Below, in pieces: positions 25,009 to 60,770 of a stretch of DNA of 64,000 nt. This DNA comes from an uncultured candidatus Porisulfidus sp. (GTDB lineage Bacteria; Pseudomonadota; Gammaproteobacteria; Poriferisulfidales; Poriferisulfidaceae). Made by a program: the position numbers and the translations under genes. The notes beneath the pieces are model-generated. The model saw nothing but the letters and a program-made list of their open reading frames with translations. It ran no database searches and was not told the DNA's origin. Position 1 is the stretch's first letter. Each line of letters opens with the position of its first letter. The stretch covers positions 384,001 to 448,000 of the forward strand of contig OZ241993.1 in the NCBI GenBank assembly GCA_965204575.1, given 5' to 3'.

Positions 25009-26088
25009 CTATGGTAGTGCATCCAGTGCGCGACAGTCCTCGGTATTCCAGCTGACCGGCGTCTCCTGGCCCACTTTCAGGTGCTCATGGCCTGCCGCGT
25101 TGGGCATCTTGACAATAAAATCGTCATGGCCCAGCACCCTCATGCGGCAACGGATGTGGTCGCCAAGGTAAATCAATTCCTCCACCACCGCATCGAACCG
25201 GTTTTCTCCTGCTTCGCCGATAAACACCCGCTCCGGACGGATCGACAACGTGGTCGGAGTGCCCATGCCACTGCAATTGACCGCCAAGGCCCGGCCGCGG
25301 CCGGAGTCTTCGATCGAGACCTCGGCCACGCCGTCGTGGACGCTTTCGACCCGGCCGTACAATCGGTTGTTCTCTCCGATGAAGCGCGCGACAAAAGCAG
25401 TCTCCGGGCATTCGTAGAGGGTTTCCGGGTCGGAATCCTGCTGGATGGAGCCATCCTTGAACACGGCGATCCGGGTCGACATGGTCAGGGCCTCGGATTG
25501 GTCGTGCGTCACATAGACGATGGTCACGCCCAACTGGTCGTGCAGATGCTTGATTTCGTACTGCATGTGCTCACGCAATTGACGGTCCAGTGCCCCCAAA
25601 GGCTCATCCATCAGCACCAGTTCCGGTCGGAACACCAAGGCGCGGGCTAACGCGGCGCGTTGCTGTTGCCCTCCCGACAGCTCGGACGGGCGGCGATTGC
25701 CGAACCGCCCCATCTCCACCATCTGCAATGCCTCGCGCACTCGCTCCTCGACCTCGGAGCGTCCCATCCGGCGCACTTGCAACGGGAATGCAAGATTCTC
25801 ATTGACCGTCATATGCGGGAACAGGGCGTAATTCTGGAATACCACGCCGATGCCCAGTTGGTGCGGAGGCACGGAATTCACCGGGCGGCCGTCGAGACGG
25901 ATCTCCCCATGCGTGACGGTCTCGAATCCAGCCAACATCATCAGGCTGGACGTCTTGCCCGAGCCGGACGGCCCGAGCAGGGTCATGAATTCACCGCGGG
26001 GGATGCTCAGGTTGAGGTTCGCAACCGCCAGAGTCTCACCGTCATAGCTTTTCTGAACCTGGTCGAACTCCACGAACGGGCGCATCAT
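25009..26088 (-). CDS. PotA-like ABC ATPase; start codon now supplied by the element end
   Basis: GPSGSGKT, LSGGQQQR, MDEPLGALD; original N-terminus stranded at 27537-27557. Confidence 0.9.
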   Translation of the reverse strand: MMRPFVEFDQVQKSYDGETLAVANLNLSIPRGEFMTLLGPSGSGKTSSLMMLAGFETVTHGEIRLDGRPVNSVPPHQLGIGVVFQNYALFPHMTVNENLAFPLQVRRMGRSEVEERVREALQMVEMGRFGNRRPSELSGGQQQRAALARALVFRPELVLMDEPLGALDRQLREHMQYEIKHLHDQLGVTIVYVTHDQSEALTMSTRIAVFKDGSIQQDSDPETLYECPETAFVARFIGENNRLYGRVESVHDGVAEVSIEDSGRGRALAVNCSGMGTPTTLSIRPERVFIGEAGENRFDAVVEELIYLGDHIRCRMRVLGHDDFIVKMPNAAGHEHLKVGQETPVSWNTEDCRALDALP

Positions 26089-27536
26089 AATGTGTGGAAA
26101 TCGGGGGGTGAGCCCCGGTAATTCCACGACATCGTTGACGGATCACTGACGGTGTCCACTAGGCATTCCATGAAGAATGCCCCCGCTTCGTTGTCCTCTC
26201 CCCGTCCCGTCACCGGAGCGCCTCCGGCCAGGAGCCTGTTCAATCCCAGGTCCAGGATGTTTCGCGCGGCATTGATGTCCGCGTTGTCCATGTGTCCGCA
26301 GGCCAGGCACTTGAAGTGCGCCTGCTCCTTTCGGTTGTCTTTGTCCACGTGCCCGCACTCCGCGCACGCCCGGCTGGTGTTCCGCGCTGGCACCCTGATG
26401 AGGTCCATCGCCTTGTACTGCAGGAAGCGGTTCATCAGCCCCATGCATGCCTTCTGCGCCAGCTTCCGGTTCAGCCCCGACTTCGCGTTCACGTGTCGCC
26501 CCGGCTTCTCTTTCGTGCCCCGAGCCGACTTCATCATGGCCTTCACGTCCAGGTCCTCCAGCACAATGTGCTGAAAGTTCTGTGCCAGCCAAGCCGAGGC
26601 GTGGTGGCTAAAGTCCTGACGCACCCCGGCCGCCTTGCGTTTCGCCTTCGCCGCACGCTGCTGCAACCGCAGCCGCCGGTTCGAGGCCACCTTGACCACC
26701 CGGCCCGACTTCGTGCGCACCGCCTCCCCGTTGGCACCCTTCAACTCGAGTAACTTCCGATGGCTCGCCCGCCACTGGTAATGCCGGGCCCGTGACTCGT
26801 GCTTCTCAATCAATTCATGTGGAATCAGGATGATCTTTCTTCCCCCGGCCCACGAAATGGCAATGTTTTCGGTATTACGGTCGACTCCGCATACTCCGCC
26901 ATGCCAGCGCCAGTCCGGGTCTTCCACCTCCCACAGCACCGACACGTACCACTTGTCTCCTTCCTGGTACACCACCGCGGTCCGCGCTTCGCCATCGCCC
27001 CAAGGATCAACGCCCCGCGTCCGCGACTGGGCCTTGCGGTTCATTCGCACCCAGCCCACCTTCGGAACCCGCAGACGCTTGTTCTGCACCTTCACGTCAT
27101 CCGGGATCGTGAACGACTCCCGGCTGATGCCCTTGACCTTGAAGCGTGGCGGCCCGGCTTCCTTCCCGCGCTTGCCTTCCCGGAGCCGTCGGCGAAAATG
27201 GGAGAAAGCGACCCCCAAGGAAAACGCGCCCGAGCTGCGCACGATAGGACAAGACAACTCTCGCAGCCACTCGTTGCCTTCCTGCGCCTTCAGTTGGATG
27301 AACCGCCTCCCGAATTCAAACGGGAAAGCCCCTGGCTTCTCCCTCTCGCCGGCCTTGAACCGCTTGTATTCTCGCTTTTGCTCGGCCAGCAACTCGTTGT
27401 AGACGAACCGGGCGGCTCCGCACAACCGGGCGAACTGGCGCTCCTGCGTCTGGTTCGGATACAGACGGTAGCGGGAGGCTCGGTGCATGATGGACCTACT
27501 CTAGCACGGGTGTTTCACACGAAATCTTTAAGCCCC
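26079..27536 (-). mobile_element. Non-autonomous cassette with ISL3-type TIRs carrying only tnpB
   Basis: Ends GGCGCATCATAATGTGTGGAA and TTTCACACGAAATCTTTAAGCCCC resemble ISL3 IRL/IRR in this window; TSD CACGAACG(26071)/TACGAACG(27537). Confidence 0.85.
26085..27488 (-). CDS. tnpB: TnpB RNA-guided nuclease family, RuvC D-E-D intact
   Basis: YRLYPN, GVDRN, VLEDL, CAECG..CLACG, NADINAARNI. Confidence 0.95.
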   Translation of the reverse strand: MHRASRYRLYPNQTQERQFARLCGAARFVYNELLAEQKREYKRFKAGEREKPGAFPFEFGRRFIQLKAQEGNEWLRELSCPIVRSSGAFSLGVAFSHFRRRLREGKRGKEAGPPRFKVKGISRESFTIPDDVKVQNKRLRVPKVGWVRMNRKAQSRTRGVDPWGDGEARTAVVYQEGDKWYVSVLWEVEDPDWRWHGGVCGVDRNTENIAISWAGGRKIILIPHELIEKHESRARHYQWRASHRKLLELKGANGEAVRTKSGRVVKVASNRRLRLQQRAAKAKRKAAGVRQDFSHHASAWLAQNFQHIVLEDLDVKAMMKSARGTKEKPGRHVNAKSGLNRKLAQKACMGLMNRFLQYKAMDLIRVPARNTSRACAECGHVDKDNRKEQAHFKCLACGHMDNADINAARNILDLGLNRLLAGGAPVTGRGEDNEAGAFFMECLVDTVSDPSTMSWNYRGSPPDFHTL

Positions 27537-27878
27537 TACGAACGCAGTATCCGTCATGATCGGCACTCCCGATGCCGGCAAACCCCTCTCGGTTTCGTCC
27601 CGCGGGTGCCGGAGAGAACACTCCCCTGCTTCAATCTCGCGGCAACCCGCAGTCCGAGGAAAACGATACGTTTTATTGTACATAGATGCGAAGCAGGCAA
27701 AGCCTAGGGTGGCGTCCGACAGCCCCCGGTCGTCATAAAACATTCATCTCTTATTTTTATGCTCCTGTCATGCGCATCCGCGAATCTAGCCACCAAGAAG
27801 TCCGGGACCCAGGGGCAAAGGGCCGTATGTTTCCTGATTAAAAGGTCAGGGCTTTCGCTTTTGACCCGCATGGCTCGG

Positions 27879-28643
27879 CTACCTTGAGCCGCACCAGTAT
27901 CGTCCGACATCCTCCGCATACAGAGGCCAGCAATGGACTCTCTGAGGGTTGAAGTCCCCGTAGTTACTGGGGTGGAAGGTATGAAGCCAAAGGAATGTCT
28001 TTCCGTCCGGCTCGAGTTCGATAAGGCCTTTTTCGTAGTAAGCATCCCGTTTGAACCGACGACGATCGCTTTTCACGGTCCGCTTGACATGCCCTCGGAC
28101 ATCGAAACTACGGCGCAGGTTCTCCTTCGCCCAACCGCCTTGCGTCACGCAGACATCCGGCTTCAGAACGTGTAATTCTCCAGGAAGGAAGCGGCGGCAG
28201 TTCTCGAACAGGATAGAGTCGGCCTGCTTGTTTCCCCCCTTGTTCGAGCAGCACTTCGCGCTGTTCACGTGTGCGAAGTGGAGACGCGTGTCCGCAACCG
28301 TGAGATGCGGCTCGAACTGGCGGAGTAACTCCCTTGCCATTTCATGGGTGCGGTACCAATGGCGGTTCTTCGGAAGTGCCGCCACGTCGCATTCAAGAGC
28401 CCGCCTGCGGACGGCTTCGCCAGTGCGTTGTTGCGGATCCGGGCTGCCTCTGCCGGAGTCCAGCGAGAGAAAAAGCAAGCGCGGGAGCGTTCTCTCTTCC
28501 TCTTCATAGCGTGGACCCACGAAACTCGCCTTGGCTTCCGTGAATTGCGGGGCTTTTGCCGAGCATTCCTCACGCCAAGGACAGCGAAAGCCGATCGATG
28601 ATATTCCATGCGAATCATAGAACGCGGCAAGCTTTTCAAGCAT
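27879..28643 (-). CDS. Uracil-DNA glycosylase-like superfamily protein
   Basis: FVGPRY, LLFLSLD, NSAKCC, EL.VLKPDV.VTQG, FHPS. Confidence 0.6.
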   Translation of the reverse strand: MLEKLAAFYDSHGISSIGFRCPWREECSAKAPQFTEAKASFVGPRYEEEERTLPRLLFLSLDSGRGSPDPQQRTGEAVRRRALECDVAALPKNRHWYRTHEMARELLRQFEPHLTVADTRLHFAHVNSAKCCSNKGGNKQADSILFENCRRFLPGELHVLKPDVCVTQGGWAKENLRRSFDVRGHVKRTVKSDRRRFKRDAYYEKGLIELEPDGKTFLWLHTFHPSNYGDFNPQRVHCWPLYAEDVGRYWCGSR

Positions 28644-28716
28644 GTGAATCCCCCCACGTGCAGGCGTGAACCATGGTGCTGCCGGGATCAGGACAAGAAT
28701 CAGGAGCAAAAGGCCC

Positions 28717-29016
28717 CTATTTATTGTAAGCACTATAGTACTGCTTCTTGGCCCCGAACACCCCCACGTCGTAGGCACCCCCGGAAAAGTACTCGAAGGT
28801 TCCCGCCGTTTCCTCGTGGCTCGACCCATAGAACGCGCCGCGAAGGCTCATGCCCGAAGCCATGTCCGACCCACTGAACCGGCCAGAGTTGTTGCTGTCC
28901 AGACTCAGTTCGTTGGGCCTGAAGGAAATGTCCGACGGGCTGACGGAACTTCCATCGTCCAAGAAAAACCATTTCTCGATTGAAACCAGCAGATCCGGCT
29001 CATTGTCAGTGCCCAA
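28717..29016 (-). pseudogene. C-terminal beta-barrel fragment of a TbpB-like surface protein
   Basis: GAFYGSSHEETAGTF...GVFGAKKQ; no signal peptide or N-terminal part. Confidence 0.6.
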
Positions 29017-29064
29017 TCCGTATGCCCCGTCGGGTGCGACACGGATGTCGAGCCTCGGACCGGT

Positions 29065-29616
29065 TCAATCTTCCTCGGGGCAGGACGCCCCTTGCCAAAA
29101 TCGTTCCGGCTCCCCCTTTTCCTTGGCCAGCGTCCGTGCCAGAACAAACAACAGGTCCGACAATCGGTTCAGGTAGACTCGCACCGTTTCCGGCAAATCA
29201 TCCAGCACGACAACCCGCCGTTCGGCACGCCGGCAAACCGCGCGCGCCACGTGGCATTGCGCCGCCTCGACGCCCCCGCCCGGAAGGACAAATTCCTCAA
29301 GCGGCGGCAACGCGGCATTCAATTCCTCGGTCCAGCGTTCCAATTGGGCTGATTTCTCTTCGCCTTTCCAATCCAACTTCCCCTGCGCAATGGTTGCGCC
29401 CAAGTCGAACAAGTCCTGCTGCACCTCTTCGACCTGCCGGCAGGCCTCCATGCCTGACGCCAAGGCCAGCAATAGCCCCAGCTGGCAGTTGAGTTCATCG
29501 ACTGCCCCCAATGCTTCGACTCGTGGATCGTCTTTAGACAGTCGGGCGCCTCCTGCAAGGCCCGTCGTCCCATCGTCCCCGCTTCGGGTTGTCACACGCG
29601 AGATGCGGTAAGCCAT
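29065..29616 (-). CDS. PduO-type cob(I)alamin adenosyltransferase
   Basis: TRSGDDGTT, GAVDELN, FVLPGG, RRAER, YLNRLSD. Confidence 0.93.
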   Translation of the reverse strand: MAYRISRVTTRSGDDGTTGLAGGARLSKDDPRVEALGAVDELNCQLGLLLALASGMEACRQVEEVQQDLFDLGATIAQGKLDWKGEEKSAQLERWTEELNAALPPLEEFVLPGGGVEAAQCHVARAVCRRAERRVVVLDDLPETVRVYLNRLSDLLFVLARTLAKEKGEPERFWQGASCPEED

Positions 29617-29624
29617 GTCGCACC

Positions 29625-30149
29625 CTATCGGAAGCCATCCAAAACGGCAATGACGTCCTGGGCATGCCCTCTTACGGGCACCGTCCTCCAGATGTGGCGG
29701 ATGATGCCTTCCGGGTCGATCAGGAAGGTCTGGCGCTTGGCGTACGACATGCCCAGCATCCCGCTGTGCGCACCGTAGCGCTCGGCGACCCTTCCTTCCG
29801 GGTCCGATAGTAGCGTGAACGGCAGGCTGTATTTGTCGATGAATTTCTGGTGGTTGTTCGCGTTGTCTATGCTGATTCCGACCACCTTGGCATTCCGCTC
29901 GTGGAACGGCGCGATCTCGTCCCGAAATGCGCAGGCTTCCATGATGCAGCCCGGCGTATTGTCTTTCGGGTAGAAGTACAGCACCAGCCACTGCCCGTAA
30001 TAATCCGAAAGATGGTGGGGCGCCTTGTTCTCATCGGTCAAGGTGAAGCCGGGAGCCGGCATGCCTACGTCCAAGGATACGGGGCTTGGCGGTGTGCTCA
30101 ACCCCAGCATCGCCAGGCTCCGGCGGAATCCCGACAGGAAGTCGCTCAT
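29625..30149 (-). CDS. bcp: BCP/PrxQ peroxiredoxin
   Basis: YFYPKDNTPGCIMEACAFRD. Confidence 0.92.
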   Translation of the reverse strand: MSDFLSGFRRSLAMLGLSTPPSPVSLDVGMPAPGFTLTDENKAPHHLSDYYGQWLVLYFYPKDNTPGCIMEACAFRDEIAPFHERNAKVVGISIDNANNHQKFIDKYSLPFTLLSDPEGRVAERYGAHSGMLGMSYAKRQTFLIDPEGIIRHIWRTVPVRGHAQDVIAVLDGFR

Positions 30150-30222
30150 TGGGGCACCTTCCCCATCCGTCCCGCCACACGGCAACGCGGCTGCCGGAAA
30201 TTTTCGAGCCGGAAGCGAGAGA

Positions 30223-31623
30223 TCACGGTGCGGCAATATCCCCGCCGGTCTGGAACCAGCGGAGCTGTTCGCGCAAGCGGACGACCTCGCCGACCACGAT
30301 GAGGGTGGGCGGTTCAACATTCTGTGATTGCACCAGTTGCGGGAGATCCTCCAGAGTGCCGGTGAGCACCCGCTGCTCCGGAGTGGTGCCCCGGGTAATC
30401 AGCGCAGCCGGAGTGCCGGCGTCCAAGCCGTGCTGCACCAACTGCCTGCAGATTTCCGGGCAGCCAGCCAAGCCCATGTAGAACACCAGCGTCTGGCGCG
30501 GGTGCGCCAGCATGTCCCAGTTAAGGTCGACGCTCCCGTCCTTGAGGTGTCCGGTCACGAAAATGCAGGCCTGCGCGTAATCGCGGTGGGTCAGTGGAAT
30601 GCCCGCGTAACTGGCACAACCGTTGGCAGCGGTGATGCCGGGGACAATCTGGAACGCGATGCCTTCTTCCATCAAGGTCGCGATTTCCTCGCCCCCGCGA
30701 CCGAACACCAGCGGGTCGCCCCCCTTCAGGCGCAGGACCCGCTTGCCTTCCCGGGCAAGACGAACCAGCAGGGCGTTGATCGATTCCTGCTCGATCGTGT
30801 GCTGGGCGCGCTCCTTGCCTGCGTAGATCTTCTCGATGTCTTTCCGCAGCAGGGCCATGATCGGATCCGACACCAGCCGATCGTAAACCACCACGTCGGC
30901 CTGCTGGATGAGACGCAGCGCGCGAAACGTCAGGAGATCCGGGTCGCCAGGCCCCGCGCCGACCAGGTAGACTTCCCCGGTGCCCGGCACCTGTCCGCGC
31001 TCCAATTCCTGCCTCAGGGTTTCGTCCGCTTCCGCCTCGCGACCGTCCAGCACCTGCTCGGCAATTGGCCCGGTCAGGACCGCTTCCCAGAAGCGGCGGC
31101 GCAACCGGCGTTCGGGGAATTTCTCCCGCGCTGCGCCCCGGAACCTCTCGACCAGTGCCGCCAGTCTCCCGAACGCGCCGGGAATGCGGCTTTCCAAGTG
31201 GTTTCGCAACAGCCGCCCGAGCACCGGCGAAGCGCCGTCGGTGCAGATCGCGACCTGAATCGGGTCCCGGTGAATCACCGACGGCAGCAGCACGTCCCCG
31301 GCATCGGCTTTATGGGCGGCATTGACCAAGAGACCCCGCCCCCGTGCTTCCTCTGCGATCCTGTCGTTCAGCGCCGCATCGCTGCTGGCAACCACAACCA
31401 GGAAGACCCCCTCCAGGTCCTCTTCCTGGAAGTCCCGGGCCTGATAATCGATGCGGCCCGCCTCGGCATGGTCGCGCACCGAGTCGACGGCTTCGGGGGC
31501 GACCACCCGGACCGGCGCACCCGCGCGCACCAGTGCTTCGATCTTCCGCGCAGCGACCGGTCCCGCTCCGACCACCAGGCAACGGCGATCCGCAACATTG
31601 GCGAACAGGGCGAGCGAAGCCAT
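30223..31623 (-). CDS. cysG: Siroheme synthase
   Basis: VVGAG.VAARK; GAGPGDPDLLT, RLKGGDP..FGRGGEE. Confidence 0.96.
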   Translation of the reverse strand: MASLALFANVADRRCLVVGAGPVAARKIEALVRAGAPVRVVAPEAVDSVRDHAEAGRIDYQARDFQEEDLEGVFLVVVASSDAALNDRIAEEARGRGLLVNAAHKADAGDVLLPSVIHRDPIQVAICTDGASPVLGRLLRNHLESRIPGAFGRLAALVERFRGAAREKFPERRLRRRFWEAVLTGPIAEQVLDGREAEADETLRQELERGQVPGTGEVYLVGAGPGDPDLLTFRALRLIQQADVVVYDRLVSDPIMALLRKDIEKIYAGKERAQHTIEQESINALLVRLAREGKRVLRLKGGDPLVFGRGGEEIATLMEEGIAFQIVPGITAANGCASYAGIPLTHRDYAQACIFVTGHLKDGSVDLNWDMLAHPRQTLVFYMGLAGCPEICRQLVQHGLDAGTPAALITRGTTPEQRVLTGTLEDLPQLVQSQNVEPPTLIVVGEVVRLREQLRWFQTGGDIAAP

Positions 31624-31690
31624 ATCTTCTTATGATGGAGTTGGAGTAAAATTAGTCTTATTATCAACCTAAAAAGAATCTTTTGAAGCC

Positions 31691-31765
31691 ATGTTTCGAT
31701 TGATCGCGGTCCTGATCGGCCTTGCCATCCTTGCCTCGGCCATCTACTTTGCGCTGGTCGGCTAG
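31691..31765 (+). CDS. 24-aa single-TM peptide (putative)
   Basis: Manual translation MFRLIAVLIGLAILASAIYFALVG*, followed by a hairpin. Confidence 0.45.
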   Translation: MFRLIAVLIGLAILASAIYFALVG

Positions 31766-31794
31766 AAGCCGAAACAACAGGACACGCAAAGTAG

Positions 31795-31829
31795 GCGGGC
31801 ATCACCTGCTTGAGGTGATGTCCGCTTTA
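31795..31829 (+). terminator. Hairpin, probable intrinsic terminator
   Basis: GCGGGCATCACCT-GCTTG-AGGTGATGTCCGC then TTT. Confidence 0.55.
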
Positions 31830-31933
31830 CACATTCTGCTTGAACCCTAAAATCATTGTTTCATTAAGAATGGGACGAAACTCTCCTACGGTTTCTGTCG
31901 TGCCCATGCCATTCTCGAACGCAGGAGAACAGC

Positions 31934-33418
31934 ATGACTGCACGAAAAATTCGAGACGCAGAAACACCACCCACCTCGACAGAAGAAACCGGAACATTTG
32001 GGGGCCTTCAAATGGAGCCCGAACTCATGCGGGATCTTGCGCAAAAGGCGGCAGAGCTTGTAGTGGAATGGATGGAAGAGATGCCCAAGCAGAATGCCTG
32101 GGATGGAGAGTTCAAGAAGGAGCTTGAAGATCGATTGATGGAGGACGCGCCGGAGGAAGGAAGACCTGCGACGGAAATCCTCGAACAGGTCGCGCACGAC
32201 ATTCTTCCCGTTGCGGCACGGCATGCGCACCCCCGGTTTTTTGCGTTTATCCCGTCGTCTCCCACATGGCCCGGAGTGCTGGCCGATTTCATGGCGGCGG
32301 GATACAACATCAATTCGGCGACCTGGCTGACCGCAAGCGGACCAAGCCAGATCGAACTGACGGTCATCGACTGGTTCCGGCGCTGGCTGGGTTACCCGAA
32401 TAGTGCCGGCGGGCTTCTCACAAGCGGGGGGTCGGCGGCCAGCCTGGATGCTCTCGTTGCGGCACGGGAAGCCGCGGGCAACCCCGAGCGGGGAGTCGTG
32501 TATATGAGCGATCAGAGCCATACCGTGCAGGTCCGAGCGGCAAAGATCGTGGGCGTGCGACCGGAACACATACGCATGATTCCATGCGATGAGTGCTTCC
32601 GCATCGATATGAAGGCTCTGGTCCGTGCCGTAGCCGAAGACCGTGCTGCGGGGCTCAACCCTATTGCCGTGTGCGCCAATGCGGGAACCTCCAGTACCGG
32701 GGCGGTCGACCCGCTTGAGGCCATGGCGGACTTCTGCGAGAAACAGGGCATTTGGTTGCACGTGGATGCCGCCTACGGAGGTTTTGCGGTCGTGACCCAG
32801 AAAGGAAAGAAACTATTGCGTGGAATCGAACGTGCGGATTCGGTTGTGCTGGATGCCCACAAGTGGTTTTTCCAGCCGTATGAAGCGGGCGGCCTCTTGG
32901 TCAAGGACATCCGTACTCTTGAGCATGCATTCACAATCCACCACGATGTTCTCCAGGACACGCTTTGGGGCGCGGATCACCCGAATTTTTCTGATTACGG
33001 CCTGCAGCTGAGCCGTTCGTTCAGAGCCTTGAAAATCTGGATGTCCGTCCAGACCTTCGGTCTGGCGGCATTCCGGAAGGCGGTATCAAAAGGAATGGAA
33101 CTGGCCAGCCGGGCGGGCGAATATGTCGAAGAAAACAAGAATTTCGATCTCCTGGGCCCGGTAACCCTGAGTGTCGTCTGTTTTCGGATTAATCCCGCTG
33201 AGGCTCATCTCGACGAGGAGGCTTTAGAAGCAATCAACCGGGCCGTGCTGGCTCGCATCTTCTGGGACAACCGTGCACTCATGTCGTCGACAACGCTTGG
33301 AAAGACCTTTTCGCTCAGGCTTTGCATCCTGAACCACACGACCGCCTGGAGCGATGTGCGTGAAACCTTGGAAGCAATTGAACGGTTCGGGGAAGAAGCG
33401 TTGGAGGCCCAAAAATAA
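31934..33418 (+). CDS. PLP-dependent group II decarboxylase (aromatic-L-amino-acid decarboxylase-like)
   Basis: HPRFFAFIP, SGGS, GTSSTGAVD, HVDAAYGG, DAHKW, QLSR.FRALK. Confidence 0.9.
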   Translation: MTARKIRDAETPPTSTEETGTFGGLQMEPELMRDLAQKAAELVVEWMEEMPKQNAWDGEFKKELEDRLMEDAPEEGRPATEILEQVAHDILPVAARHAHPRFFAFIPSSPTWPGVLADFMAAGYNINSATWLTASGPSQIELTVIDWFRRWLGYPNSAGGLLTSGGSAASLDALVAAREAAGNPERGVVYMSDQSHTVQVRAAKIVGVRPEHIRMIPCDECFRIDMKALVRAVAEDRAAGLNPIAVCANAGTSSTGAVDPLEAMADFCEKQGIWLHVDAAYGGFAVVTQKGKKLLRGIERADSVVLDAHKWFFQPYEAGGLLVKDIRTLEHAFTIHHDVLQDTLWGADHPNFSDYGLQLSRSFRALKIWMSVQTFGLAAFRKAVSKGMELASRAGEYVEENKNFDLLGPVTLSVVCFRINPAEAHLDEEALEAINRAVLARIFWDNRALMSSTTLGKTFSLRLCILNHTTAWSDVRETLEAIERFGEEALEAQK

Positions 33419-34340: not shown

Positions 34341-34373
34341 AAAAATAACTCTGATATTCGTTGACCCGCTCCA

Positions 34374-48046: not shown

Positions 48047-48319
<273 letters not shown>

Positions 48320-49336: not shown

Positions 49337-49359
49337 CCCCCTGACTGGAGTAGAACCGA

Positions 49360-50904
<1,545 letters not shown>

Positions 50905-50911
50905 CACGCAA

Positions 50912-51778
50912 ATGGCGGGCGAGAAGGAAATTCGCAGCAAGATCGCGAGTATTCGCAATACTCAGAAGATCACCAAGGCGATGGAGATGGTCGCGGCCAG
51001 CAAGATGCGCAAGGCCCAGGACCGCATGGCCGCCACCCGCCCGTATGCGATGAAGATCCGCGAAGTGATCGGCCATCTGGCTCATGCCAGCGCCGAATAC
51101 CGCCATCCGTTCCTCGAGGGCCGCGAAGAAGTGCGCGGTGTGGGCTTTATCGTGGTCTCCACCGATCGCGGCCTGTGCGGCGGGCTCAACATCAACCTGT
51201 TCAAGACCGTCCTGCGGGAAATGCACGAATGGCGGCAGAAGCAGGTGCCGGTGCGGCTTTGCCTGTTCGGCGCCAAGGGGACCGCGTTCTTCAAGCGCAT
51301 CGGCGGCATCGAGATCGTTGCGCAGACTTCGCACCTGGGCGACGCGCCGAGGCTCGAAGAGGTCATCGGGCAGGTCAAGATCATGCTGGACGACTACATC
51401 GAGGGGCGCATCGACCGGGTCTACCTGGCCGAGAACGAGTTCGTCAACACCATGACGCAGAAGCCGAACATCTCGACACTGCTTCCGACCCCCCCGGCAG
51501 AACTGGAAACACTTGAACACCATTGGGATTACATCTACGAGCCCGGCGCACCCGAAGTGCTGGACGGGCTGCTGATGCGCTACATCGAGTCGCTGGTGTA
51601 CCGCGGCGTGATGGAGAACATCGCCTGCGAGATGGCCGCGCGCATGGTCGCGATGAAGAGCGCCTCGGACAATGCCGGAAACCTGATCGACGAGTTGCAA
51701 CTGATCTACAACAAGGCGCGACAGGCGGCGATCACCCAGGAAATCTCGGAAATCGTCGGCGGAGCCGCTGCCATATAG
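50912..51778 (+). CDS. atpG: ATP synthase subunit gamma
   Basis: [32 protein letters not shown]. Confidence 0.99.
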
Positions 51779-51783
51779 CCGAA

Positions 51784-53062
51784 GGGAATTATGCAGCAAA
51801 ATCTGCAAGCATATAATCTTGCCCAATGAAAGTCCCCCGCACCGTCCGCTACCGCCTGCATCCGGGTTCTGCACGAAAAAACCAGCAGTTGCACGGCACC
51901 GCCGGGGCCTGCCGCTTCGTCTGGAACCACATGGTCGGGAAGCTCAGGGACGAGTACGAATTCGGAATCAAGCCGGACTTTCGGCACTATTCCCTGTGTC
52001 ATGTCTTCACCGTCATGCGGAGGGAGGACGGCACGACGAAGTGGCTGCAGGACTATTCGTCCAAGGTGGTCCGGATCTCCCTGAAGCCCATCGAGACGGC
52101 CTACAAGGAATTCTTCAAGGATCGGGAGACCGGCGGGAAACTGAACCGGAAACTGCCGCAGTTTCACGGCAAGTACAGTACGATTCCAAGTTTTCCGATT
52201 GATTATCAATCCGCACGAGTAGCAGGAGAGAGCCTGTACGTTCAGAAGGTCGGCTGGATGAAACTGGTCGGCAGCAACCCGTACCCGGACGGCGAGTTCA
52301 AGTCCGGGCGGATCAGATACGAATGCGGCAAGTGGTACGCCTACCTGACCTATGAAGTCCAGGCGGAAGCGAGTCTTCCGCACAGCATTCGGGAAGTCGG
52401 AATCGACCGCAATGTAAACGAGAATGGTTGGGCGGTTCTTTCGGACGGCACGAAGTACCCGGGCCCGGACTTGGGGAGGAAGGTGGCAAAACGTAGGCGC
52501 TACCAGCGCAAGATGGCACGGCAGGTGAAGGGAAGCAACCGTAGGGCGATCACCAAGGTGAAGTTGCAGAAGGCGTACCAGGCGGAACGCTTCGCCCGCC
52601 TCAACTGGGCGCACCACGTCAGCAAGAGCATTGCCTCCGAGTACGATGTCGCTTACGTAGAAAAACTGAACATCCGGGGCATGACGAAGTCGGCCAAGGG
52701 CACGGTGGAGAAACCCGGCAAGAACGTGAAACAGAAGTCAGGACTCAACCGGAAGATCCTGGCCAGCGCATGGGGCACGCTGGAGCTGTGTCTGAACTAC
52801 AAGATGGAAATGCGCCATGTGCATCCGGCGTACACTAGCCAGACGTGCCATTCATGCGGGCACGTCGATGAGAAAACAGAAATGGAACAGACTTCAAGTG
52901 CACCGCTTGCGGGCACGCGGACGATGCGGACGTGAATGCCGCATTGAACATACTGGCCTTTGGGAGTGGGGCAACTGGACGTGGAGGTGGCGACACTAGT
53001 CGGCCTGAGAAACGTCAAGAAATGGGCAGTGAATCCCTTGCGGATTTTGCTACATAATTCCC
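51784..53062 (+). mobile_element. Non-autonomous cassette with IS1595-like TIRs carrying only tnpB, inside the atp operon
   Basis: 26-bp TIRs 24/26 (51784-51809, 53037-53062); TSD TAGCCGAA(51776)/TAACCGAA(53063). Confidence 0.93.
51826..53057 (+). pseudogene. tnpB: TnpB, frameshifted in the zinc finger region
   Basis: A4 at 52873-52876 versus A5 in the paralog; CTACG and DADVNAALNI continue in another frame to TAA 53055-53057. Confidence 0.9.
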
Positions 53063-53083
53063 TAACCGAAATCGATCAATTAA

Positions 53084-54478
<1,395 letters not shown>

Positions 54479-54485
54479 GCCGGAC

Positions 54486-54911
54486 ATGAGCACCCTGCAA
54501 GTCGAGATCGTCAGCGCCGAGCACGAAATCTATTCGGGCGAGGCCCATTGGGTGGTGGCGCCCGCCGCCATGGGCGAGGTCGGCATCTATCCCCAGCACA
54601 CGCCGCTCATCACCCACCTCAAGCCCGGCGAAGTGCGGGTCAGCGCGGTGGAGGAAAACGAGGAGCTCCTGTTCTTCGTCTCCGGCGGCATGCTGGAGGT
54701 GCAGCCGCACCAGGTCACCGTGCTGTCCGATACCGCCATGCGGGGAGCGGATTTGGACGAGGCGAAGGCCGAGGAGGCCAAGAAACGGGCCGAGCAGGCA
54801 CTGTCCGACCGCAAGGCTGATTTCGACGAGGCCCGGGCCTTGGCGGAGTTGGCCGAAGCCGCGGCACAGCTGCGGATGATCCAGAAACTGCGCAAGACCG
54901 GTCGCGGCTGA
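54486..54911 (+). CDS. atpC: ATP synthase subunit epsilon
   Basis: [21 protein letters not shown]. Confidence 0.98.
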
Positions 54912-54915
54912 TCCC

Positions 54916-54936
54916 CGGGGGCGTAAAATGCCCCCG
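54916..54936 (+). terminator. Hairpin after atpC
   Basis: CGGGGGC-GTAAAAT-GCCCCCG, weak U tract. Confidence 0.4.
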
Positions 54937-54959
54937 TTACTGCAAATATCGGTTATCTC

Positions 54960-56327
54960 ATGGGAACCGAAGCTGTCATTCTTGCCGGAGGCGTCGGCAA
55001 ACGCCTAGCGCAAGCCGTACCGAAACCCCTGCTCGACCTGTGCGGAAAGCCCCTGCTCGGGCACGTCATGGAAACGGCCGCGGCCGTGGCGGACAAGATC
55101 CATGTCGTGTACGGCCCTCCGTTGGCGGAGCCGCTCGCCGGGCTGGAAGAGACGTCTTCGATTCCGTTCGCGTCTCACCTGCAGCCTGAGCCCCGCGGCA
55201 CGGCCGACGCGCTCGGCTGCGCTCTCCCGGCGATAGAAGATTCCGCCACCGTGATCGTGCTGTGCGCGGATGTCCCGCTGCTGCAACCCGGCACCCTCGC
55301 TCAACTGCTGTCCGCCCGCCCCGAGACCGGCCTCGCGCTTCTGACCATGCGCCAGAACGGCAGCCAGCTTGGGCGGATCGTGCGCGGCGACGACGGGCAG
55401 GTCCTCGCCATCCGGGAGCACGCCGACGCCACGGAAGAGGAACGCGGCATCGACGAGTGCAACACCGGCGTGATGGCGGCAAGCGCGGGGCAGTTCCGTG
55501 AATGGTGCGCCCGCGTCACCGACCGCAACGCCCAGGGAGAGTTCTACCTGACCGACTGCATCGCCGAAGCGGTGCAAGACGGAATCCCCATCGAAACCCG
55601 GGAATGCAACCCGATTGAGGGCCTCGGCGTCAACACGATGCGGGAATTCGCCGTGGTGGCGGAACATTGGCAGCAGCAGGCGCGCGAGCGGCTGATGGCG
55701 CAAGGCGCCCTGATGGAAGCACCCGATACGGTTTGGCTGTCGGCGGGAGTGATGCTGGAAGAAGATGCGACGGTTCGCATCGGGCCGCATGTCGTATTTC
55801 GGGAGTCGGCCCGACTGGCTGATGGAGCCAATATCGGACCGTACACGCTGCTGAGAAACTGCAGAATCGGCGCCGGCACCGAGATCGAGCCTTTCACCGT
55901 CATAGAGGAAGCCCAGGTCGGAGCCCGTTGCCGCATCGGGCCCTATGCGCGAATCCGCCCGGAAACCGAACTGGCCGAAGGCGTGCAAATCGGGAATTTC
56001 GTCGAAGTCAAGAAGTCCAGGATCGGAGAACGCACCAAGATCAACCACTTGTCGTACGTCGGCGACAGCGAGGTCGGCCGCGGCGTCAACCTCGGGGCGG
56101 GCACCATCACCTGCAACTACGACGGAGCGCAAAAACATGCAACCGTAATCGGGGACGACGTCTTCGTGGGGTCTGGTACCCAGCTGATTGCCCCGGTCAC
56201 CATTGGTGCGGGTGCGACCATCGGTGCCGGCTCGACCATCACCCGGGATACCCCTCCCGGAGAACTGACCCTGTCACGCAGCGAACAGAAAACGCTTCAG
56301 GGCTGGAAGCGGCCACGGAAAGGCTAA
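54960..56327 (+). CDS. glmU: Bifunctional GlmU
   Basis: EFYLTD, GNFVEVKK, HLSYVGD, CNYDG. Confidence 0.97.
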   Translation: MGTEAVILAGGVGKRLAQAVPKPLLDLCGKPLLGHVMETAAAVADKIHVVYGPPLAEPLAGLEETSSIPFASHLQPEPRGTADALGCALPAIEDSATVIVLCADVPLLQPGTLAQLLSARPETGLALLTMRQNGSQLGRIVRGDDGQVLAIREHADATEEERGIDECNTGVMAASAGQFREWCARVTDRNAQGEFYLTDCIAEAVQDGIPIETRECNPIEGLGVNTMREFAVVAEHWQQQARERLMAQGALMEAPDTVWLSAGVMLEEDATVRIGPHVVFRESARLADGANIGPYTLLRNCRIGAGTEIEPFTVIEEAQVGARCRIGPYARIRPETELAEGVQIGNFVEVKKSRIGERTKINHLSYVGDSEVGRGVNLGAGTITCNYDGAQKHATVIGDDVFVGSGTQLIAPVTIGAGATIGAGSTITRDTPPGELTLSRSEQKTLQGWKRPRKG

Positions 56328-56375
56328 AACGATCAAGTTGCAAACAAGCTCATTGATTCCGGGGCAATGAAATTA

Positions 56376-56408
56376 TTGACATATGTTGTCAATTATGACA
56401 ACATATGT
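56376..56408 (+). promoter_or_regulatory. TA operator: perfect 13-bp IR overlapping a TTGACA -35
   Basis: ACATATGTTGTCA-ATTA-TGACAACATATGT (56379-56408). Confidence 0.75.
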
Positions 56409-56764
56409 ACATGGAACGTGATACGAGACCGATTGGATGGGTTCGAGCGGCACGAAAAGTGTATGAAAGGTTCCCCATAGCGGTTCGAGATCGCGTCAAT
56501 ATTGCCTTAACTATTGCTGCCGAAGGCTCAAAAGCGGATATCGCCAAACCCCTTAAAGGTCTTGGGTCGGGCATTATGGAGATAGCGGCACGCTACCGAA
56601 CAGATGCATATCGTGTTGTCTATACCACTAAGATTGCTGGAATGCTGTGGGTAATCCACGCATTTCAAAAAAAATCTAAAATAGGAGTACGAGCCCCGAA
56701 GGCGGAAATCGACCTTGTCCGAGAGCGGCTGAAGCAATTGAAAAGGGAGTTTCCCCAGCAATAA
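56405..56764 (+). CDS. RelE/HigB-like (Gp49) toxin
   Basis: KPLKGLGSG..EI, AYRVVY, HAFQKKS. Confidence 0.9.
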   Translation: MYMERDTRPIGWVRAARKVYERFPIAVRDRVNIALTIAAEGSKADIAKPLKGLGSGIMEIAARYRTDAYRVVYTTKIAGMLWVIHAFQKKSKIGVRAPKAEIDLVRERLKQLKREFPQQ

Positions 56765-56790
56765 GGTGATGAAAATTGCGGAGAGTGAAT

Positions 56791-57123
56791 ATGGACGATG
56801 ACAAACTAGAGGTTACCCATGGGAGCGGAAATGTTTTCCGCGACTTTGGTGATCCTTACGCAGACCTGAAACAGGCCAAGGCTATTCTTGCAGCCCAGAT
56901 CATCTCGGTGCTGGACGAACGTAGCCTGTCGGTGCGCAAGGCAGCAAACATGACTAGCTTTGCTGCAGCAGACTTCTCCCGTGTCCGCAGTGCAGACCTA
57001 GGACGTTTTACTTTAGATAGATTAATGAAAATGCTTGTAGCCTTGGATAGCGAAGTTAGAGTCACTGTTCACATTGGCACAGGATCAGCAGAAGAAACAC
57101 CCATACCTAACCCTGCCCAGTGA
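56791..57123 (+). CDS. XRE/HigA-like HTH antitoxin
   Basis: GSGNVFRDFG, ADFSR, FTLDRL. Confidence 0.88.
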   Translation: MDDDKLEVTHGSGNVFRDFGDPYADLKQAKAILAAQIISVLDERSLSVRKAANMTSFAAADFSRVRSADLGRFTLDRLMKMLVALDSEVRVTVHIGTGSAEETPIPNPAQ

Positions 57124-57160
57124 CTGGATCTAGGAAAGTAGGACCGCTTAGGAAAGACTA

Positions 57161-58996
57161 ATGTGTGGAATCGTCGGTGCAGCGGCCCGTCAGGACGTGA
57201 CATCCGCGTTGCTGGAAGGCCTGAAACGTCTGGAATACCGGGGTTATGACTCCGCCGGAATCGCAGTGCTCAACGACCATGGCCTGCAGCGTCTGCGTTG
57301 CAACGGCAAGGTCGCTGAACTGGTGCAGGAAACCGAATCGACCGGCCTGAGCGGACAGGTCGGCATCGCGCATACCCGCTGGGCCACCCATGGCGCACCC
57401 TCAGACCGAAACGCGCACCCCCACGTGGCCGGCACGGACGGGCGTATTGCCGTCGTGCACAACGGGATCATCGAAAACCATGCCGCCCTGAGAAAGCAGC
57501 AGCAAGACCGGGGAATCACGCACGACTCGGACACCGATTCCGAAATCCTGGCTTGCCAGATTGCCGGGCACCTAAGCGCACAGAATGGCCTGATCGATGC
57601 GGTTCGGGCGGCCGTGGACGAAGTGGAAGGAAGCTTCGCGTTCGGCGTGATCGACCGCGAGGACCCAGAGCGGATCATCGGTGCCCGCCGTGGCAGTCCC
57701 CTGGTCGTGGGGCATGGCGACAGCGGTTACTACCTGGCTTCCGACCCGCTGGCGCTGGCGGAAGTCTCATCCCGGTACTGCCTGCTGCAGAACGGCGACA
57801 TCGTGATGATCAGCGAAGGGGAAGCCGTGGTCTGGAACGGGAGCGAGACGGTGGCCCGGGAGTGGCGGGAATTCCAGGACACGGAGGTGGAAAGCGGGCT
57901 CGGCGACTACGAGCACCATATGCAGAAGGAAATCTTCGAGCAGCCGGATGCCGTGGCGCAGACGCTGGAAGGAAGAATCGAGACCGGGCGGGTCGACGAC
58001 GGGATTCTCGGCCCGGACGCCGGTGCCATCCTCGATGCAACCCGCGCCGTGCAGATCGCCGCCTGCGGAACCAGCTATCACGCCGCACTGGTGGCGCGCC
58101 ACTGGCTTGAACGGCATGCGGGAATCCACTGCCGAGTCGAGATCGCCAGCGAATTCCGCTACCGCCAGCATGCCCAGGATCCCGACACCCTGTTCATCGC
58201 CATCTCCCAGTCCGGAGAAACGGCAGACACCCTGGCGGCACTGGAGATGGCGAATCAGGACCCGAACTACCACGCAACCCTGGCGATCTGCAACGTCGCG
58301 CACAGTTCCATGGTCCAGGAATCCGACCTGACCCTGCTGACCCACGCCGGGCCCGAGATCGGAGTGGCCTCCACCAAGGCTTTCGTCACGCAGTTGGCTG
58401 CGCTGATGCTGGTGGTGATCCTGCTCGGCCGACGCCGGGCATTAACCGCCGAGGCGGAATCGGACCTGGTCGCACAGTTGGCCAACCTGCCGACCCGGAT
58501 CGGCCGGGCGCTCGAACTGGATGCAGGAATCGCAGACTTGTCGAAACAATTCGCGAACCGGCATCACGCATTGTTCCTGGGCCGGGGTTCGCACTACCCG
58601 ATTGCGATGGAAGGCGCCCTGAAACTGAAGGAGATCTCTTATATCCATGCCGAGGCTTATGCCGCCGGCGAGCTCAAGCACGGTCCGCTGGCACTGGTGG
58701 ACGAGGACATGCCCGTGGTGGCGGTCGCACCGAACAATCGCCTGCTGGAGAAGCTCAAGAGCAACCTGGAAGAAGTGCGCGCGCGGGGGGGACGCTTGTA
58801 CGTATTCGCGGACCGGCGTTCAGGATTCCAGAGTGACGACCTGATGACCGTGTTCGAACTGGATGCGCCGGAAAACGCGGTGGCGCCGATACTGTTTACG
58901 GTCCCGCTGCAGTTGCTGGCATACCACTGCGCCAAAATCAAAGGGACCGATATCGACCAGCCCCGCAACCTTGCGAAATCGGTCACGGTTGAATGA
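57161..58996 (+). CDS. glmS: Glutamine-fructose-6-phosphate transaminase
   Basis: MCGIVG, HTRWATHG, PRNLAKSVTVE. Confidence 0.99.
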   Translation: MCGIVGAAARQDVTSALLEGLKRLEYRGYDSAGIAVLNDHGLQRLRCNGKVAELVQETESTGLSGQVGIAHTRWATHGAPSDRNAHPHVAGTDGRIAVVHNGIIENHAALRKQQQDRGITHDSDTDSEILACQIAGHLSAQNGLIDAVRAAVDEVEGSFAFGVIDREDPERIIGARRGSPLVVGHGDSGYYLASDPLALAEVSSRYCLLQNGDIVMISEGEAVVWNGSETVAREWREFQDTEVESGLGDYEHHMQKEIFEQPDAVAQTLEGRIETGRVDDGILGPDAGAILDATRAVQIAACGTSYHAALVARHWLERHAGIHCRVEIASEFRYRQHAQDPDTLFIAISQSGETADTLAALEMANQDPNYHATLAICNVAHSSMVQESDLTLLTHAGPEIGVASTKAFVTQLAALMLVVILLGRRRALTAEAESDLVAQLANLPTRIGRALELDAGIADLSKQFANRHHALFLGRGSHYPIAMEGALKLKEISYIHAEAYAAGELKHGPLALVDEDMPVVAVAPNNRLLEKLKSNLEEVRARGGRLYVFADRRSGFQSDDLMTVFELDAPENAVAPILFTVPLQLLAYHCAKIKGTDIDQPRNLAKSVTVE

Positions 58997-59457
58997 TCGG
59001 CAAGGAAATGCTGGACACCAAAATCCCTCCACCGATTGTCGCCATACTCATTGGCGTCTGCATCTATTTTTCACGGGACTGGCTGCCGCAGTTTGACTCC
59101 GGCTACCTCTTCTATGTGGGACTCGGCTGTGAACTTTTGGCCGTCGTGATCAACCTCACGGCTATCTTTTCCTTCATCAAGAACAAAACCACGATCAATC
59201 CGGTAAAACCTCATGCCGCGACCTCACTGGTGACTTCCGGGGCATTTACATTTTCCCGGAACCCCATGTACCTGGGGCTGCTGCTGTTCCTTTTCGGTTT
59301 TGCGCTTCAGGTCAACATCGTCGGAGGGGTGCCGCTGTTGGTTCTTTTCGTCCTCTACCTGAACGCGTTTCAAATCCTCCCCGAGGAGCGTGCCATGCTG
59401 GAGGTTTTTGGAGATGAATACCGGGAATATATGAAAAAAGTCAGAAGGTGGATATAG
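58993..59457 (+). CDS. ICMT/PEMT-like membrane methyltransferase
   Basis: TTINP, SRNPMYLG, PEE..FG..Y..Y..VRRWI. Confidence 0.9.
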   Translation: MIGKEMLDTKIPPPIVAILIGVCIYFSRDWLPQFDSGYLFYVGLGCELLAVVINLTAIFSFIKNKTTINPVKPHAATSLVTSGAFTFSRNPMYLGLLLFLFGFALQVNIVGGVPLLVLFVLYLNAFQILPEERAMLEVFGDEYREYMKKVRRWI

Positions 59458-60770
59458 GGAACGCACGAAAGTTGACAAACAGGGAGCCTTGAAGACAATC
59501 TTCCCATGAAAGTCCTCCGCACCGTCCGCTACCGCCTGCATCCGGGTTCTGCAAGAAAGAATCAGCAACTACACGGCACCGCCGGGGCCTGCCGCTTCGT
59601 CTGGAACCACATGGTCGGGAAGCTCAGAGACGAGTACGAATTCGGTATCAAGCCGGACTTTCGCCACTATTCCCTGTGTCATGTCTTCACCATCATGCGG
59701 AGGGAGGACGGCACGACGAAGTGGTTGCAGGGCTATTCGTCAAAAGTGGTCAGGGTCTCTCTAAAGCCCATCGAGACGACCTACAAGGAGTTCTTCAAGG
59801 ATTTGAAAACCGGCGGCAAACTGAATCGGAAGCGCCCGCAATTCCATGGCAAGTACGCTGTCGCACCTTCGTTTCCGGTGAATTACGAATGCGCGAAGGT
59901 AGCGGGAGAAAGCCTGTACGTGCAGAAGGTCGGTTGGATGAAGATGGTCGGAAACAACCCGTACCCGGACGGCGAGTTCAAGTCCGGGCGGATCAAGTAC
60001 GAATGTGGCAAGTGGTACGCCTACCTGGCCTATGAAGTTCAGGCGGAAGCCAGTCTCCCCCACGCCATCAAGGAAGTCGGCATCGACCGCAACGTGAACG
60101 CGGATGGGTGGGCGGTATTGTCGGACGGCACGAAGCATCCGGGCCCGGACTTGGAACGCAAGGTGGCACGGCGCAAACGATACCAGCGCAAGATGGCACG
60201 GCAGACGAAGGGAAGCAACCGCAGGAAGATCACCAAGATTCGGTTACAGAGGGCGTTCCGTGCGGAACGCTTCGCCCGGTTAAACTGGGCGCACCACGTC
60301 AGCAAGGACGTGGCTTCACAGTATGACCTAGCCTACGTAGAGAAGCTGAACATCCGGGGCATGACGAAGTCGGCCAAGGGCACCAGAGAGAGACCCGGCA
60401 AGAACGTAAAAGCGAAGGCAGCCCTGAACAGAAAGATTCTCGCCTCCGCATGGGGCACGCTGGAGTTGTGCCTAGACTACAAAATGGAAGTGCACCATGT
60501 GCATCCAGCGTACACCAGCCAAACGTGCCATTTGTGCGGGCACGTCGATGAGAAAAACAGAAATGGAACAGACTTCAAGTGCACCGCTTGCGGGCACGCG
60601 GACGATGCGGACGTGAACGCCGCATTGAACATTCTGGCCTTCGGGAATGGGGCGGCTGGACGTGGAGGTGGCGACACCGGCGGGGCATCCTGCCACAGTC
60701 GGCCTGGGAAGCGTCAAGAAATGGTGAAGGTTGACGAGAAATCCTCTGCCAACTTTCATACATAATTCCC
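59457..60770 (+). mobile_element. Non-autonomous cassette with IS1595-like TIRs carrying an intact tnpB
   Basis: Left end GGGAA---CGCACGAAAGTTGACA versus right-end reverse complement GGGAATTATGTATGAAAGTTGGCA; perfect TSD TGGATATA (59449, 60771). Confidence 0.9.
59506..60765 (+). CDS. tnpB: TnpB, RuvC D-E-D intact
   Basis: GIDRN, YVEKL, CHLCG..CTACG, DADVNAALNI. Confidence 0.95.
   Translation: MKVLRTVRYRLHPGSARKNQQLHGTAGACRFVWNHMVGKLRDEYEFGIKPDFRHYSLCHVFTIMRREDGTTKWLQGYSSKVVRVSLKPIETTYKEFFKDLKTGGKLNRKRPQFHGKYAVAPSFPVNYECAKVAGESLYVQKVGWMKMVGNNPYPDGEFKSGRIKYECGKWYAYLAYEVQAEASLPHAIKEVGIDRNVNADGWAVLSDGTKHPGPDLERKVARRKRYQRKMARQTKGSNRRKITKIRLQRAFRAERFARLNWAHHVSKDVASQYDLAYVEKLNIRGMTKSAKGTRERPGKNVKAKAALNRKILASAWGTLELCLDYKMEVHHVHPAYTSQTCHLCGHVDEKNRNGTDFKCTACGHADDADVNAALNILAFGNGAAGRGGGDTGGASCHSRPGKRQEMVKVDEKSSANFHT

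Follow-up and report, generated by a model that had tools for sequence, protein, structure and literature searches.

The genome of an uncultured candidatus Porisulfidus sp. raises the question of how tnpB genes are carried when no transposase gene accompanies them. In the 64,000-nucleotide stretch analysed here (the window, G000:C1:384001-448000, from a single-contig genome, G000, of 1.82 Mb that is 98.75% complete), three tnpB genes, designated tnpB-1, tnpB-2 and tnpB-3, have no adjoining transposase gene, and we found that they belong to non-autonomous DDE-type cassettes with tnpB as their only gene. That such cassettes, closed by imperfect terminal inverted repeats (TIRs) of ~24 bp and 8-bp target site duplications (TSDs), are mobilised in trans appears very likely to us.

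The three open reading frames (ORFs) match the Pfam domains HTH_OrfB_IS605, OrfB_IS605 and TNB and the NCBIfam model guided_TnpB. A preliminary description of this DNA had stated that neither a Y1 nor a serine transposase lies beside them, and this proved true well beyond their immediate neighbourhood: genome-wide searches gave 0 matches for the Y1 TnpA (PF01797) that characterises IS200/IS605 and IS1341 elements, and 0 matches for the serine recombinase/resolvase domain (PF00239) expected of IS607 elements, from which the presence of TIRs and TSDs also sets the cassettes apart.

Cassette 1 (26079..27536, minus strand), a solo tnpB with ISL3-type TIRs, interrupts a potA-like ABC ATPase gene within its first codons and carries tnpB-1 (26085..27488, minus strand; 467 aa with the RuvC D-E-D residues present), whose stop codon lies within the right TIR. 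Its right, downstream TSD (26071..26078) and its left TSD (27537..27544, the same as in empty alleles L131 and L145), both read on the minus strand, agree at 7/8 positions, a register shifted one base to the left being equally good, and its TIR pair has decayed to 11-12/24 in register. Cassette 2 (51784..53062, plus strand), a solo tnpB with IS1595-type TIRs, lies between atpG and atpD within the ATP synthase operon. Its TIR pair matches at 22/24 positions and its plus-strand TSDs at 7/8, the left one (51776..51783) holding the atpG stop codon and the right one (53063..53070) being identical to empty allele L094. Cassette 3 (59457..60770, plus strand), also a solo tnpB with IS1595-type TIRs, has an 8/8 TSD (59449..59456 on the left and 60771..60778 on the right, plus strand) and carries tnpB-3 (59506..60765, plus strand; 419 aa with D194/E279/D369 present), whose stop also falls within the right TIR; this TIR pair has decayed to 9/24 in register, with a small deletion in the left TIR. 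The earlier claim that TIRs and an 8-bp TSD bracket each gene could be upheld for all three, the TIRs of cassettes 1 and 3 being decayed, while the claim that every tnpB frame ends inside a TIR applies to tnpB-1 and tnpB-3 and fails for tnpB-2 (51826..52935, plus strand). This gene is frameshifted near 52872 and stops at 52935, short of the TIR, in a frame without RuvC-III; contigs of run X1 agree, with no inserted base near 52872, and tnpB-2 is probably inactive.

Empty alleles were then sought in 15 congeners, among the loci retrieved from them. Alleles with one 8-mer and no TIR were found for cassette 1 (L131, L132, L145), for cassette 2 (L094 and L095, with diverged 7-bp and 6-bp spacers in L096, L110 and L100) and for cassette 3 (L155, L174), and contigs of run X5 join precisely across two of the cassettes, from 51775 to 53063 (cassette 2) and from 59448 to 60771 (cassette 3). 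Since these alleles and joints lack the TIRs and keep a single TSD copy, the insertion unit is the segment from TIR to TIR, with an 8-bp duplication. Two observations that the preliminary description had named as fatal to its proposal were not made: no empty allele at the three sites retained the TIRs or both 8-mers, and sibling tnpB copies have boundaries that map to TIRs, none being found with a TIR-less boundary at CGTCAA and a transposon-associated motif (TAM).

The same architecture recurs outside the window. A tblastn search of the genome returned 16 full-length tnpB loci, which fall into family A (6, including cassette 1), family B (7, including cassettes 2 and 3) and family C (3), plus fragments; once the ends had been set by family motifs, 12/16 showed an 8-bp TSD with at least 7/8 positions in agreement. 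Relatives occur in 10/15 congeners and in 9/19 genomes of a sister family. Across genomes, 101 distinct full loci (63 B, 23 A, 8 of a further family D and 7 C) were analysed; four loci lacking the stem-2 motif described below had been left aside. Among these 101, the TSD matches at 7/8 or better in 68 and perfectly in 42, the TIR at 15/24 or better in 88, and both a TSD of at least 7/8 and such a TIR occur in 61; when the left TSD of one locus was compared with the right TSD of another, 7/8 was reached in 22/6806 pairs, a null on the lenient side, as each locus had its left boundary optimised. Beyond this lineage, a search of a phylum sample covering 400 other genomes gave no family B member at E<=1e-55, and a plasmid collection yielded only distant TnpBs (<60%), 4/6 of those examined carrying an annotated IS200/IS605 tnpA. 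One family A tnpB, that of L312 (G009:C1:921700-925600), is split by ~1.4 kb of other DNA.

Where do the ends come from? The assignment of ISL3-type ends to one window cassette and of IS1595-type ends to the two others is borne out by TIR matches to intact ISL3 (NF033550) and IS1595 (NF033547) elements. An intact autonomous ISL3 with an 8-bp TSD at 12974..14321 (plus strand; NF033550), one of three identical genome copies, is the candidate helper for family A: in 5/6 genome copies the family A right end matches the 5' end of this resident element at 19-22/24, the ends of cassette 1 having drifted (12/24 and 17/24 versus ISL3), and the 8-bp TSD of cassette 1 has the length that the resident ISL3 makes. 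Because the family A right end corresponds to the ISL3 5' end, tnpB is oriented opposite to the ISL3 transposase. IS1595 transposase matches occur in 10/15 congeners, and intact IS1595 elements (NF033547) in three of them; the TIRs of L117 and L122 match those of cassette 2 at 23/24, and the right end of cassette 3 matches intact IS1595 elements at 20/24. Among the right ends of families B, C and D, 51/80 agree with the TIR of an autonomous IS1595 element at 20 or more of 24 positions, different copies matching different subtypes. The search for autonomous elements with the same TIRs that had been recommended was therefore productive for both families, ISL3 being intact in this genome and IS1595 in congeners only. 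The ISNwi1 subgroup, to which the preliminary description had assigned the end consensus ggnnatTAT, is a candidate label for the IS1595-type ends, NF033547 supporting the family level and not the subgroup.

Several other loci bear on these ends. The transposase of L273 and a nearby tnpB, considered as one autonomous element, are in fact two separate elements. A tiny element at G000:C1 ~624978-625020 resembles two fused ISL3-type TIRs, and a solo IS1595-type TIR at window positions 11874-11898 is near-identical to the left TIR of cassette 2, with no partner found. A group E (L194-L197) encodes TnpBs at 42-47% to tnpB-3 within a third TIR type that starts with GGTAGTG and has poor TSDs; these TIRs may resemble IS1-family ends.

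We next considered what lies at the 3' end of the genes, where the motif [C/T]GTCAA is found in every family, 43-59 nt inside the right TIR, and resembles an IS605 end. If this motif were the real end, the genes would be IS605 or IS1341 insertions in existing miniature inverted-repeat transposable elements (MITEs), with a fixed guide in those 43-59 nt, and the constant distance of the motif in all families, followed by family-conserved bases, fits such a reading. However, when the bases after CGTCAA were taken as guides, no convincing genomic target was found for 16 of them (best 16/20, with no common 5' motif); in canonical IS605 relatives the sequences at the CGTCAA position, GAAGCAGGAA, GAACCGTGAA and GAAGCGCCAA, form the 3' strand of stem 2, so that the matching motif is internal, with further sequence, then a hairpin and finally the true TCAA end beyond it; and the bases 3' of CGTCAA fold onto the inner TIR as a hairpin, stem 4, with a mean of -12.9 kcal/mol (n=64) versus -8.0 with the TIR of another copy. 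The fixed internal guide was rejected on these three grounds, and by this comparison CGTCAA is an internal stem of the predicted omegaRNA and not an IS605 end. The MITE explanation is further opposed by the lack of an IS605 left end in the 26-53 nt between TIR and ATG of the genome's A and B copies and by a flank bias, described below, that lies outside the cassette; of the alternatives weighed here, it is the one to which we give least credence.

In the omegaRNA scaffold of ISDra2, stems 1-4 are accompanied by a pseudoknot in which nt -6 to -2 before the guide pair with the stem-1 loop (PMC10097598). The cassettes carry a counterpart, since the six terminal bases of the element can pair with their stem-1 loop, whose sequence varies with the end type: the loop:end pairs are GGGAAT:ATTCCC in family B, GGGACT:AGTCCC in C/D, GGCGCT:AGCGCC in A and GGTAGT:ACTACC in group E (L194-L196). 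Out of six possible pairs, the mean is 5.97 in B (n=64), 5.50 in C/D (16), 5.96 in A (23) and 6.00 in E (3), and 3.0-5.0 across families. The scaffold of cassette 1 is predicted at 26079..26230 (minus strand), its loop hexamer 26217-26222 being complementary at 5/6 positions to the last six nucleotides (26079-26084). That of cassette 2 is predicted at 52953..53062 (plus strand), with loop 52962-52967 pairing with 53057-53062 and the stem-2 motif at 53010-53018, and that of cassette 3 at 60634..60770 (plus strand), with loop 60643-60648 pairing with 60765-60770 and the stem-2 motif at 60709-60717. Rfam gave no match at E<=1 in the three loci.

As the stem-1 loop can pair with the final six nucleotides of the right TIR in each of four end types, the guide is probably the right TSD copy followed by the downstream flank, starting at 26078 (reading leftward), 53063 and 60771 in cassettes 1, 2 and 3. 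The exact start was placed with the help of a phage TnpB of the same clade (L358:1702-3076, from IMGVR_UViG_3300007151_000001), which is followed by a CRISPR-like array with 4 copies of a ~33-nt repeat at a spacing of 65-69 and which scores below the cut-off of the named Cas12 models. Read by eye, the scaffold loop of L358 can pair with the end of the repeat in the register seen in the cassettes, leaving a single base ahead of the spacer, and this one-base gap led us to place the cassette guide at TSD base 1, with base 2 as the alternative. We also noted ORF-less mini-elements (G000:C1 ~775890-776170 and ~1028755-1029040; L313, L314, L319) that combine a promoter and a family-A-like scaffold, its loop:end pair altered, with a terminator-like hairpin in the place of the guide; that of L313 is bounded by IS1595-type TIRs and an 8-bp TSD. 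A further orphan omegaRNA scaffold, the third, lies at G000 ~1479680.

If the guide consists of TSD and flank, a TAM is expected 5' of the left TSD only. This expectation was examined at loci with a TSD of at least 7/8 and a TIR of at least 12, with transposase-only elements as controls. In family B, purines occupy positions -1 and -3 (RNR) in 36/42 sites, versus 13/42 mirror flanks and 12/48 flanks of 24 IS1595-only sites; in C/D, G is at -1 in 9/9, versus 2/9 mirror flanks and 10/48 IS1595-only flanks; and in A, G is at -1 in 14/15, versus 3/15 mirror flanks and 2/14 ISL3-only flanks. The one-sided bias thus recurs in three lineages, and the candidate TAM would be approximately RNR in B (in many cases RTR), a G at -1 in A (in many cases as part of CTG) and a G at -1 in C/D. 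The window cassettes fit these patterns, with CTG (27545-27547, minus strand) 5' of the left TSD of cassette 1, ATA just 5' of that of cassette 2 and AGG just 5' of that of cassette 3.

Such a bias might instead reflect target choice at insertion, through asymmetric ends or TnpB-aided targeting, rather than later selection by cleavage. The two TIRs of a cassette are indeed unequal, and the first TSD base likewise shows a skew (A/C in 34/42 B sites), but transposase-only IS1595 and ISL3 elements with like ends are unbiased on both sides, and we regard this explanation as quite improbable. A somewhat less improbable alternative, although still an unlikely one and compatible with the cassette model favoured here, is that the ribonucleoprotein mainly binds at the left junction without cutting, causing self-repression or a block of excision. 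In its favour, TAM bias and TSD create at the left junction of most copies a partial target, a TAM with an 8-nt guide match behind it, where bound TnpB would lie next to its promoter and left TIR; the -35 box is within the left TIR of B copies; and left ends decay faster than right ends. Yet the catalytic D-E-D residues are retained in 97/98 long ORFs, and the faster left decay is also explained by constraint on the right end as RNA: in B copies, the 9 nt at the right terminus carry fewer mismatches than those at the left one (0.26 versus 1.23, n=43, p=8e-5), as expected if the right terminus also serves as RNA.

The TnpB protein itself also appears to be maintained. An ORF of at least 375 aa is present in 98/101 loci, these being the 98 in which alignment was used to follow the D-E-D residues, and among genome copies the median ratio of nonsynonymous to synonymous substitution rates (dN/dS), taken upstream of the RNA overlap, is 0.19 in A, 0.15 in B and 0.11 in C, which indicates that the tnpB copies are under purifying selection. 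These values of 0.11-0.19, together with the intact catalytic residues, the loop:end covariation and the flank bias, speak against the view that tnpB is an ordinary passenger of IS1595 and ISL3 cassettes and plays no part at the site where they insert. In favour of a mere passenger, IS1595 elements here bear other cargo, such as a methyltransferase, and a tnpB-free cassette at G000:C1:16580-17145 has the same IS1595-type TIRs as cassette 2 around other internal DNA; we nevertheless judge it very improbable.

Our model for these cassettes is as follows. The ISL3 transposase would move family A in trans and the IS1595 transposase families B, C and D. The omegaRNA would retain the IS605-type core stems 1-3, the right TIR replacing the IS605 right-end hairpin and TCAA end, so that the inner TIR would form stem 4 and the last six nucleotides would form the pseudoknot with the stem-1 loop. 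The predicted target is the empty allele, consisting of the TAM, one TSD copy and the flank, with a short TAM directly 5' of the TSD. TnpB would cut alleles that never had the cassette, or that lost it, as through a precise deletion from one TSD copy to the other; insertions beside a TAM would then be retained, or restored through recombination. In this way a single TnpB clade could serve several DDE families, its loop being retuned to each new end. Taken as a whole, with a TIR-closed omegaRNA, a guide made of TSD and flank and cleavage of the empty allele, we hold this mechanism to be reasonably probable. A bolder version, which we offer tentatively and consider possible though short of probable, is that this TnpB clade has left IS605 for good and become a portable retention module, passing among IS1595 subtypes, ISL3 and one or more further families and recoding its 6-nt loop each time; the TAM would then not be chosen by the transposase but be enriched by later selection, the flank bias would be a population-level record of guarding against precise loss, and the clade would also be the source of the phage CRISPR-linked nuclease.

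A number of observations weigh against this model. The sole IS1595 transposase in the genome is broken, leaving the B and C cassettes without a visible helper, 2/16 genome tnpB copies are broken, and none of 43 IS1595/ISL3 transposase loci holds an element encoding both a DDE transposase and tnpB. The within-family pairing figures are circular, because the loop and end motifs were written from the same sequences, so that the real evidence for pairing is the four compensating between-family states, and C/D ends often carry one loop:end mismatch. The TAM patterns are short and were picked after the data had been seen, at loci filtered for good TSDs; the IS1595 control consists mostly of young copies, 8/24 being those of a single element within one genome, and 7 elements make up the ISL3 control. 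The left junction, which combines the TAM with an 8-nt match, could itself be targeted. Finally, purifying selection could stem from the past spread of the element and not from activity at the present loci.

We also asked how often TnpB was captured. In a quick IQ-TREE analysis (59 rows), the TnpBs of families A, B, C and D and 29 homologues lie on one side of a branch with an SH-aLRT of 100, apart from six plasmid IS605-type TnpBs, and a FastTree analysis (92 rows) recovered the same group plus E and L358 with a support of 99, excluding all 48 rows labelled canonical IS605 by a loose motif. The suggestion that TnpB had been captured at least twice was not sustained, as the TnpBs with ISL3-type and IS1595-type ends are in one supported clade; because all TIR-borne TnpBs fall in this clade, one capture followed by end-switching would fit at least as well as two captures. 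Branching inside the clade was not resolved; the names of distant in-clade homologues point to metagenome-assembled genomes of Caldilineaceae, Rhodospirillales and Rhodobacteraceae. Exchange between cassettes is also visible in the alignments: between cassette 2 and the copy at G000:1619459, identity is 93-100% across most of the ORF but 53% and 63% at the ends, while the G000:1619459 copy and its same-site counterpart in G011 have ends at 98% and 95% and an ORF at only 83-94%. Since cassette 2 and the 1619459 copy share the ORF but not the ends, we read this as a likely sign of gene conversion. That copy (G000:C1:1618204-1619459) is a second broken B copy, with a stop at codon 140 and an alignment split where cassette 2 splits.

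The general principle, TnpB on DDE ends and solo copies mobilised in trans, has been published before, and this limits the surprise of these findings. Altae-Tran et al. 2023 described six DDE-linked TnpB branches, DDE-1 to DDE-6, bounded by inverted repeats, together with solo TnpBs whose ends are the same and which they proposed to be trans-mobilised (PMC10691335). The present cassettes resemble these branches in having TnpB within DDE-element inverted repeats, solo copies with ends like those of transposase-bearing elements and a 3' end <250 bp from the transposon end, and differ from them in that no transposase is co-encoded among the 43 loci (PMC10691335). IS630 is the only family named in the main text of that article, which mentions neither ISL3 nor IS1595 nor TSDs, and its supplementary text file has ISL3 and IS1595 only as rows of a profile list; the retuning of the loop to the TIR end and a TAM beside a variable 8-bp TSD are cassette features not described in its available text (PMC10691335). 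A 2026 review lists ISL2, IS630 and IS1031 for TnpB (PMC13565253). In the mostly open-access literature searched we found no description of TnpB on IS1595 or ISL3 ends, which the supplements of PMC10691335 may name, and ISL3 and IS1595 as TnpB partners, with the present details, are apparently unpublished.

Compared with IS200/IS605 and IS1341 elements such as ISDra2, the cassettes share the RuvC D-E-D residues (cassettes 1 and 3), and are predicted to share an omegaRNA overlapping the gene 3' end, stems 1-4, a pseudoknot before a flank-derived guide and a TAM 5' of the target; unlike in ISDra2, stem 4 and the pseudoknot strand are predicted to come from the TIR, and the TAM would be very short and not set by the transposase (PMC10097598). 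In contrast to IS200/IS605 elements they have no Y1 TnpA, end hairpins or TCAA, and have TIRs and an 8-bp TSD. Non-autonomous IS derivatives that carry passenger genes are termed mobile insertion cassettes (MIC) or transporter IS (tIS). The present cassettes are like non-autonomous IS1595 and ISL3 derivatives in TIR sequence, in their AT-rich 8-bp TSD and in a presumed dependence on a helper, and unlike the others in that their cargo is an RNA-guided nuclease whose predicted RNA uses the TIR itself. The parallel that had been drawn with Fanzor holds insofar as both are TnpB-family nucleases on TIR/TSD elements of several unrelated transposase families (PMC13565253), here DDE-type cassettes in a prokaryote; it is not new in principle, DDE-linked TnpBs having been published (PMC10691335). 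Differences from Fanzor are the bacterial host, the canonical RuvC-II spacing, with E279 of tnpB-3 lying 62 residues before the first zinc-finger Cys versus six in Fanzor, and the role of the TSD, which is the predicted guide seed in the cassettes and part of TAM and scaffold in Fanzor (PMC13565253).

The role of an RNA-guided nuclease in prokaryotic transposons that make a TSD is treated as open by the 2026 review (PMC13565253), and the model gives a testable answer to how such a nuclease could serve a TSD-leaving transposon without a fixed target motif. The compensatory loop:end series would show how an omegaRNA adapts to a new carrier, each cassette yields an exact prediction of guide, target and TAM for which natural empty alleles are known, and the predicted purine TAMs of one to three bases, if true, would be useful for compact editors.

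Cassette 1 severed the first codons (in the region 27545-27557), with the original start at 27555-27557, from the potA-like ABC ATPase gene (25009..26088, minus strand). Its right TIR, the most altered one in family A, reads ATG ATG where sibling copies have GTG AAG, in frame with the potA-like gene, and the first new ATG overlaps the tnpB-1 stop (ATGA); the potA-like gene may thus use this new start, its translation being coupled to that of tnpB-1. The left TIR of cassette 3 retains a -35 TTGACA, and because the -10 box lies only 7 nt upstream of the ATG, this layout suggests a leaderless tnpB transcript. Lastly, the site of cassette 3 (59449-59460) carries other insertions in G002, G012, G008 and G009 (L159, L173, L171, L161 and L162, seen as gaps between flank matches) and may therefore be an insertion hot spot.

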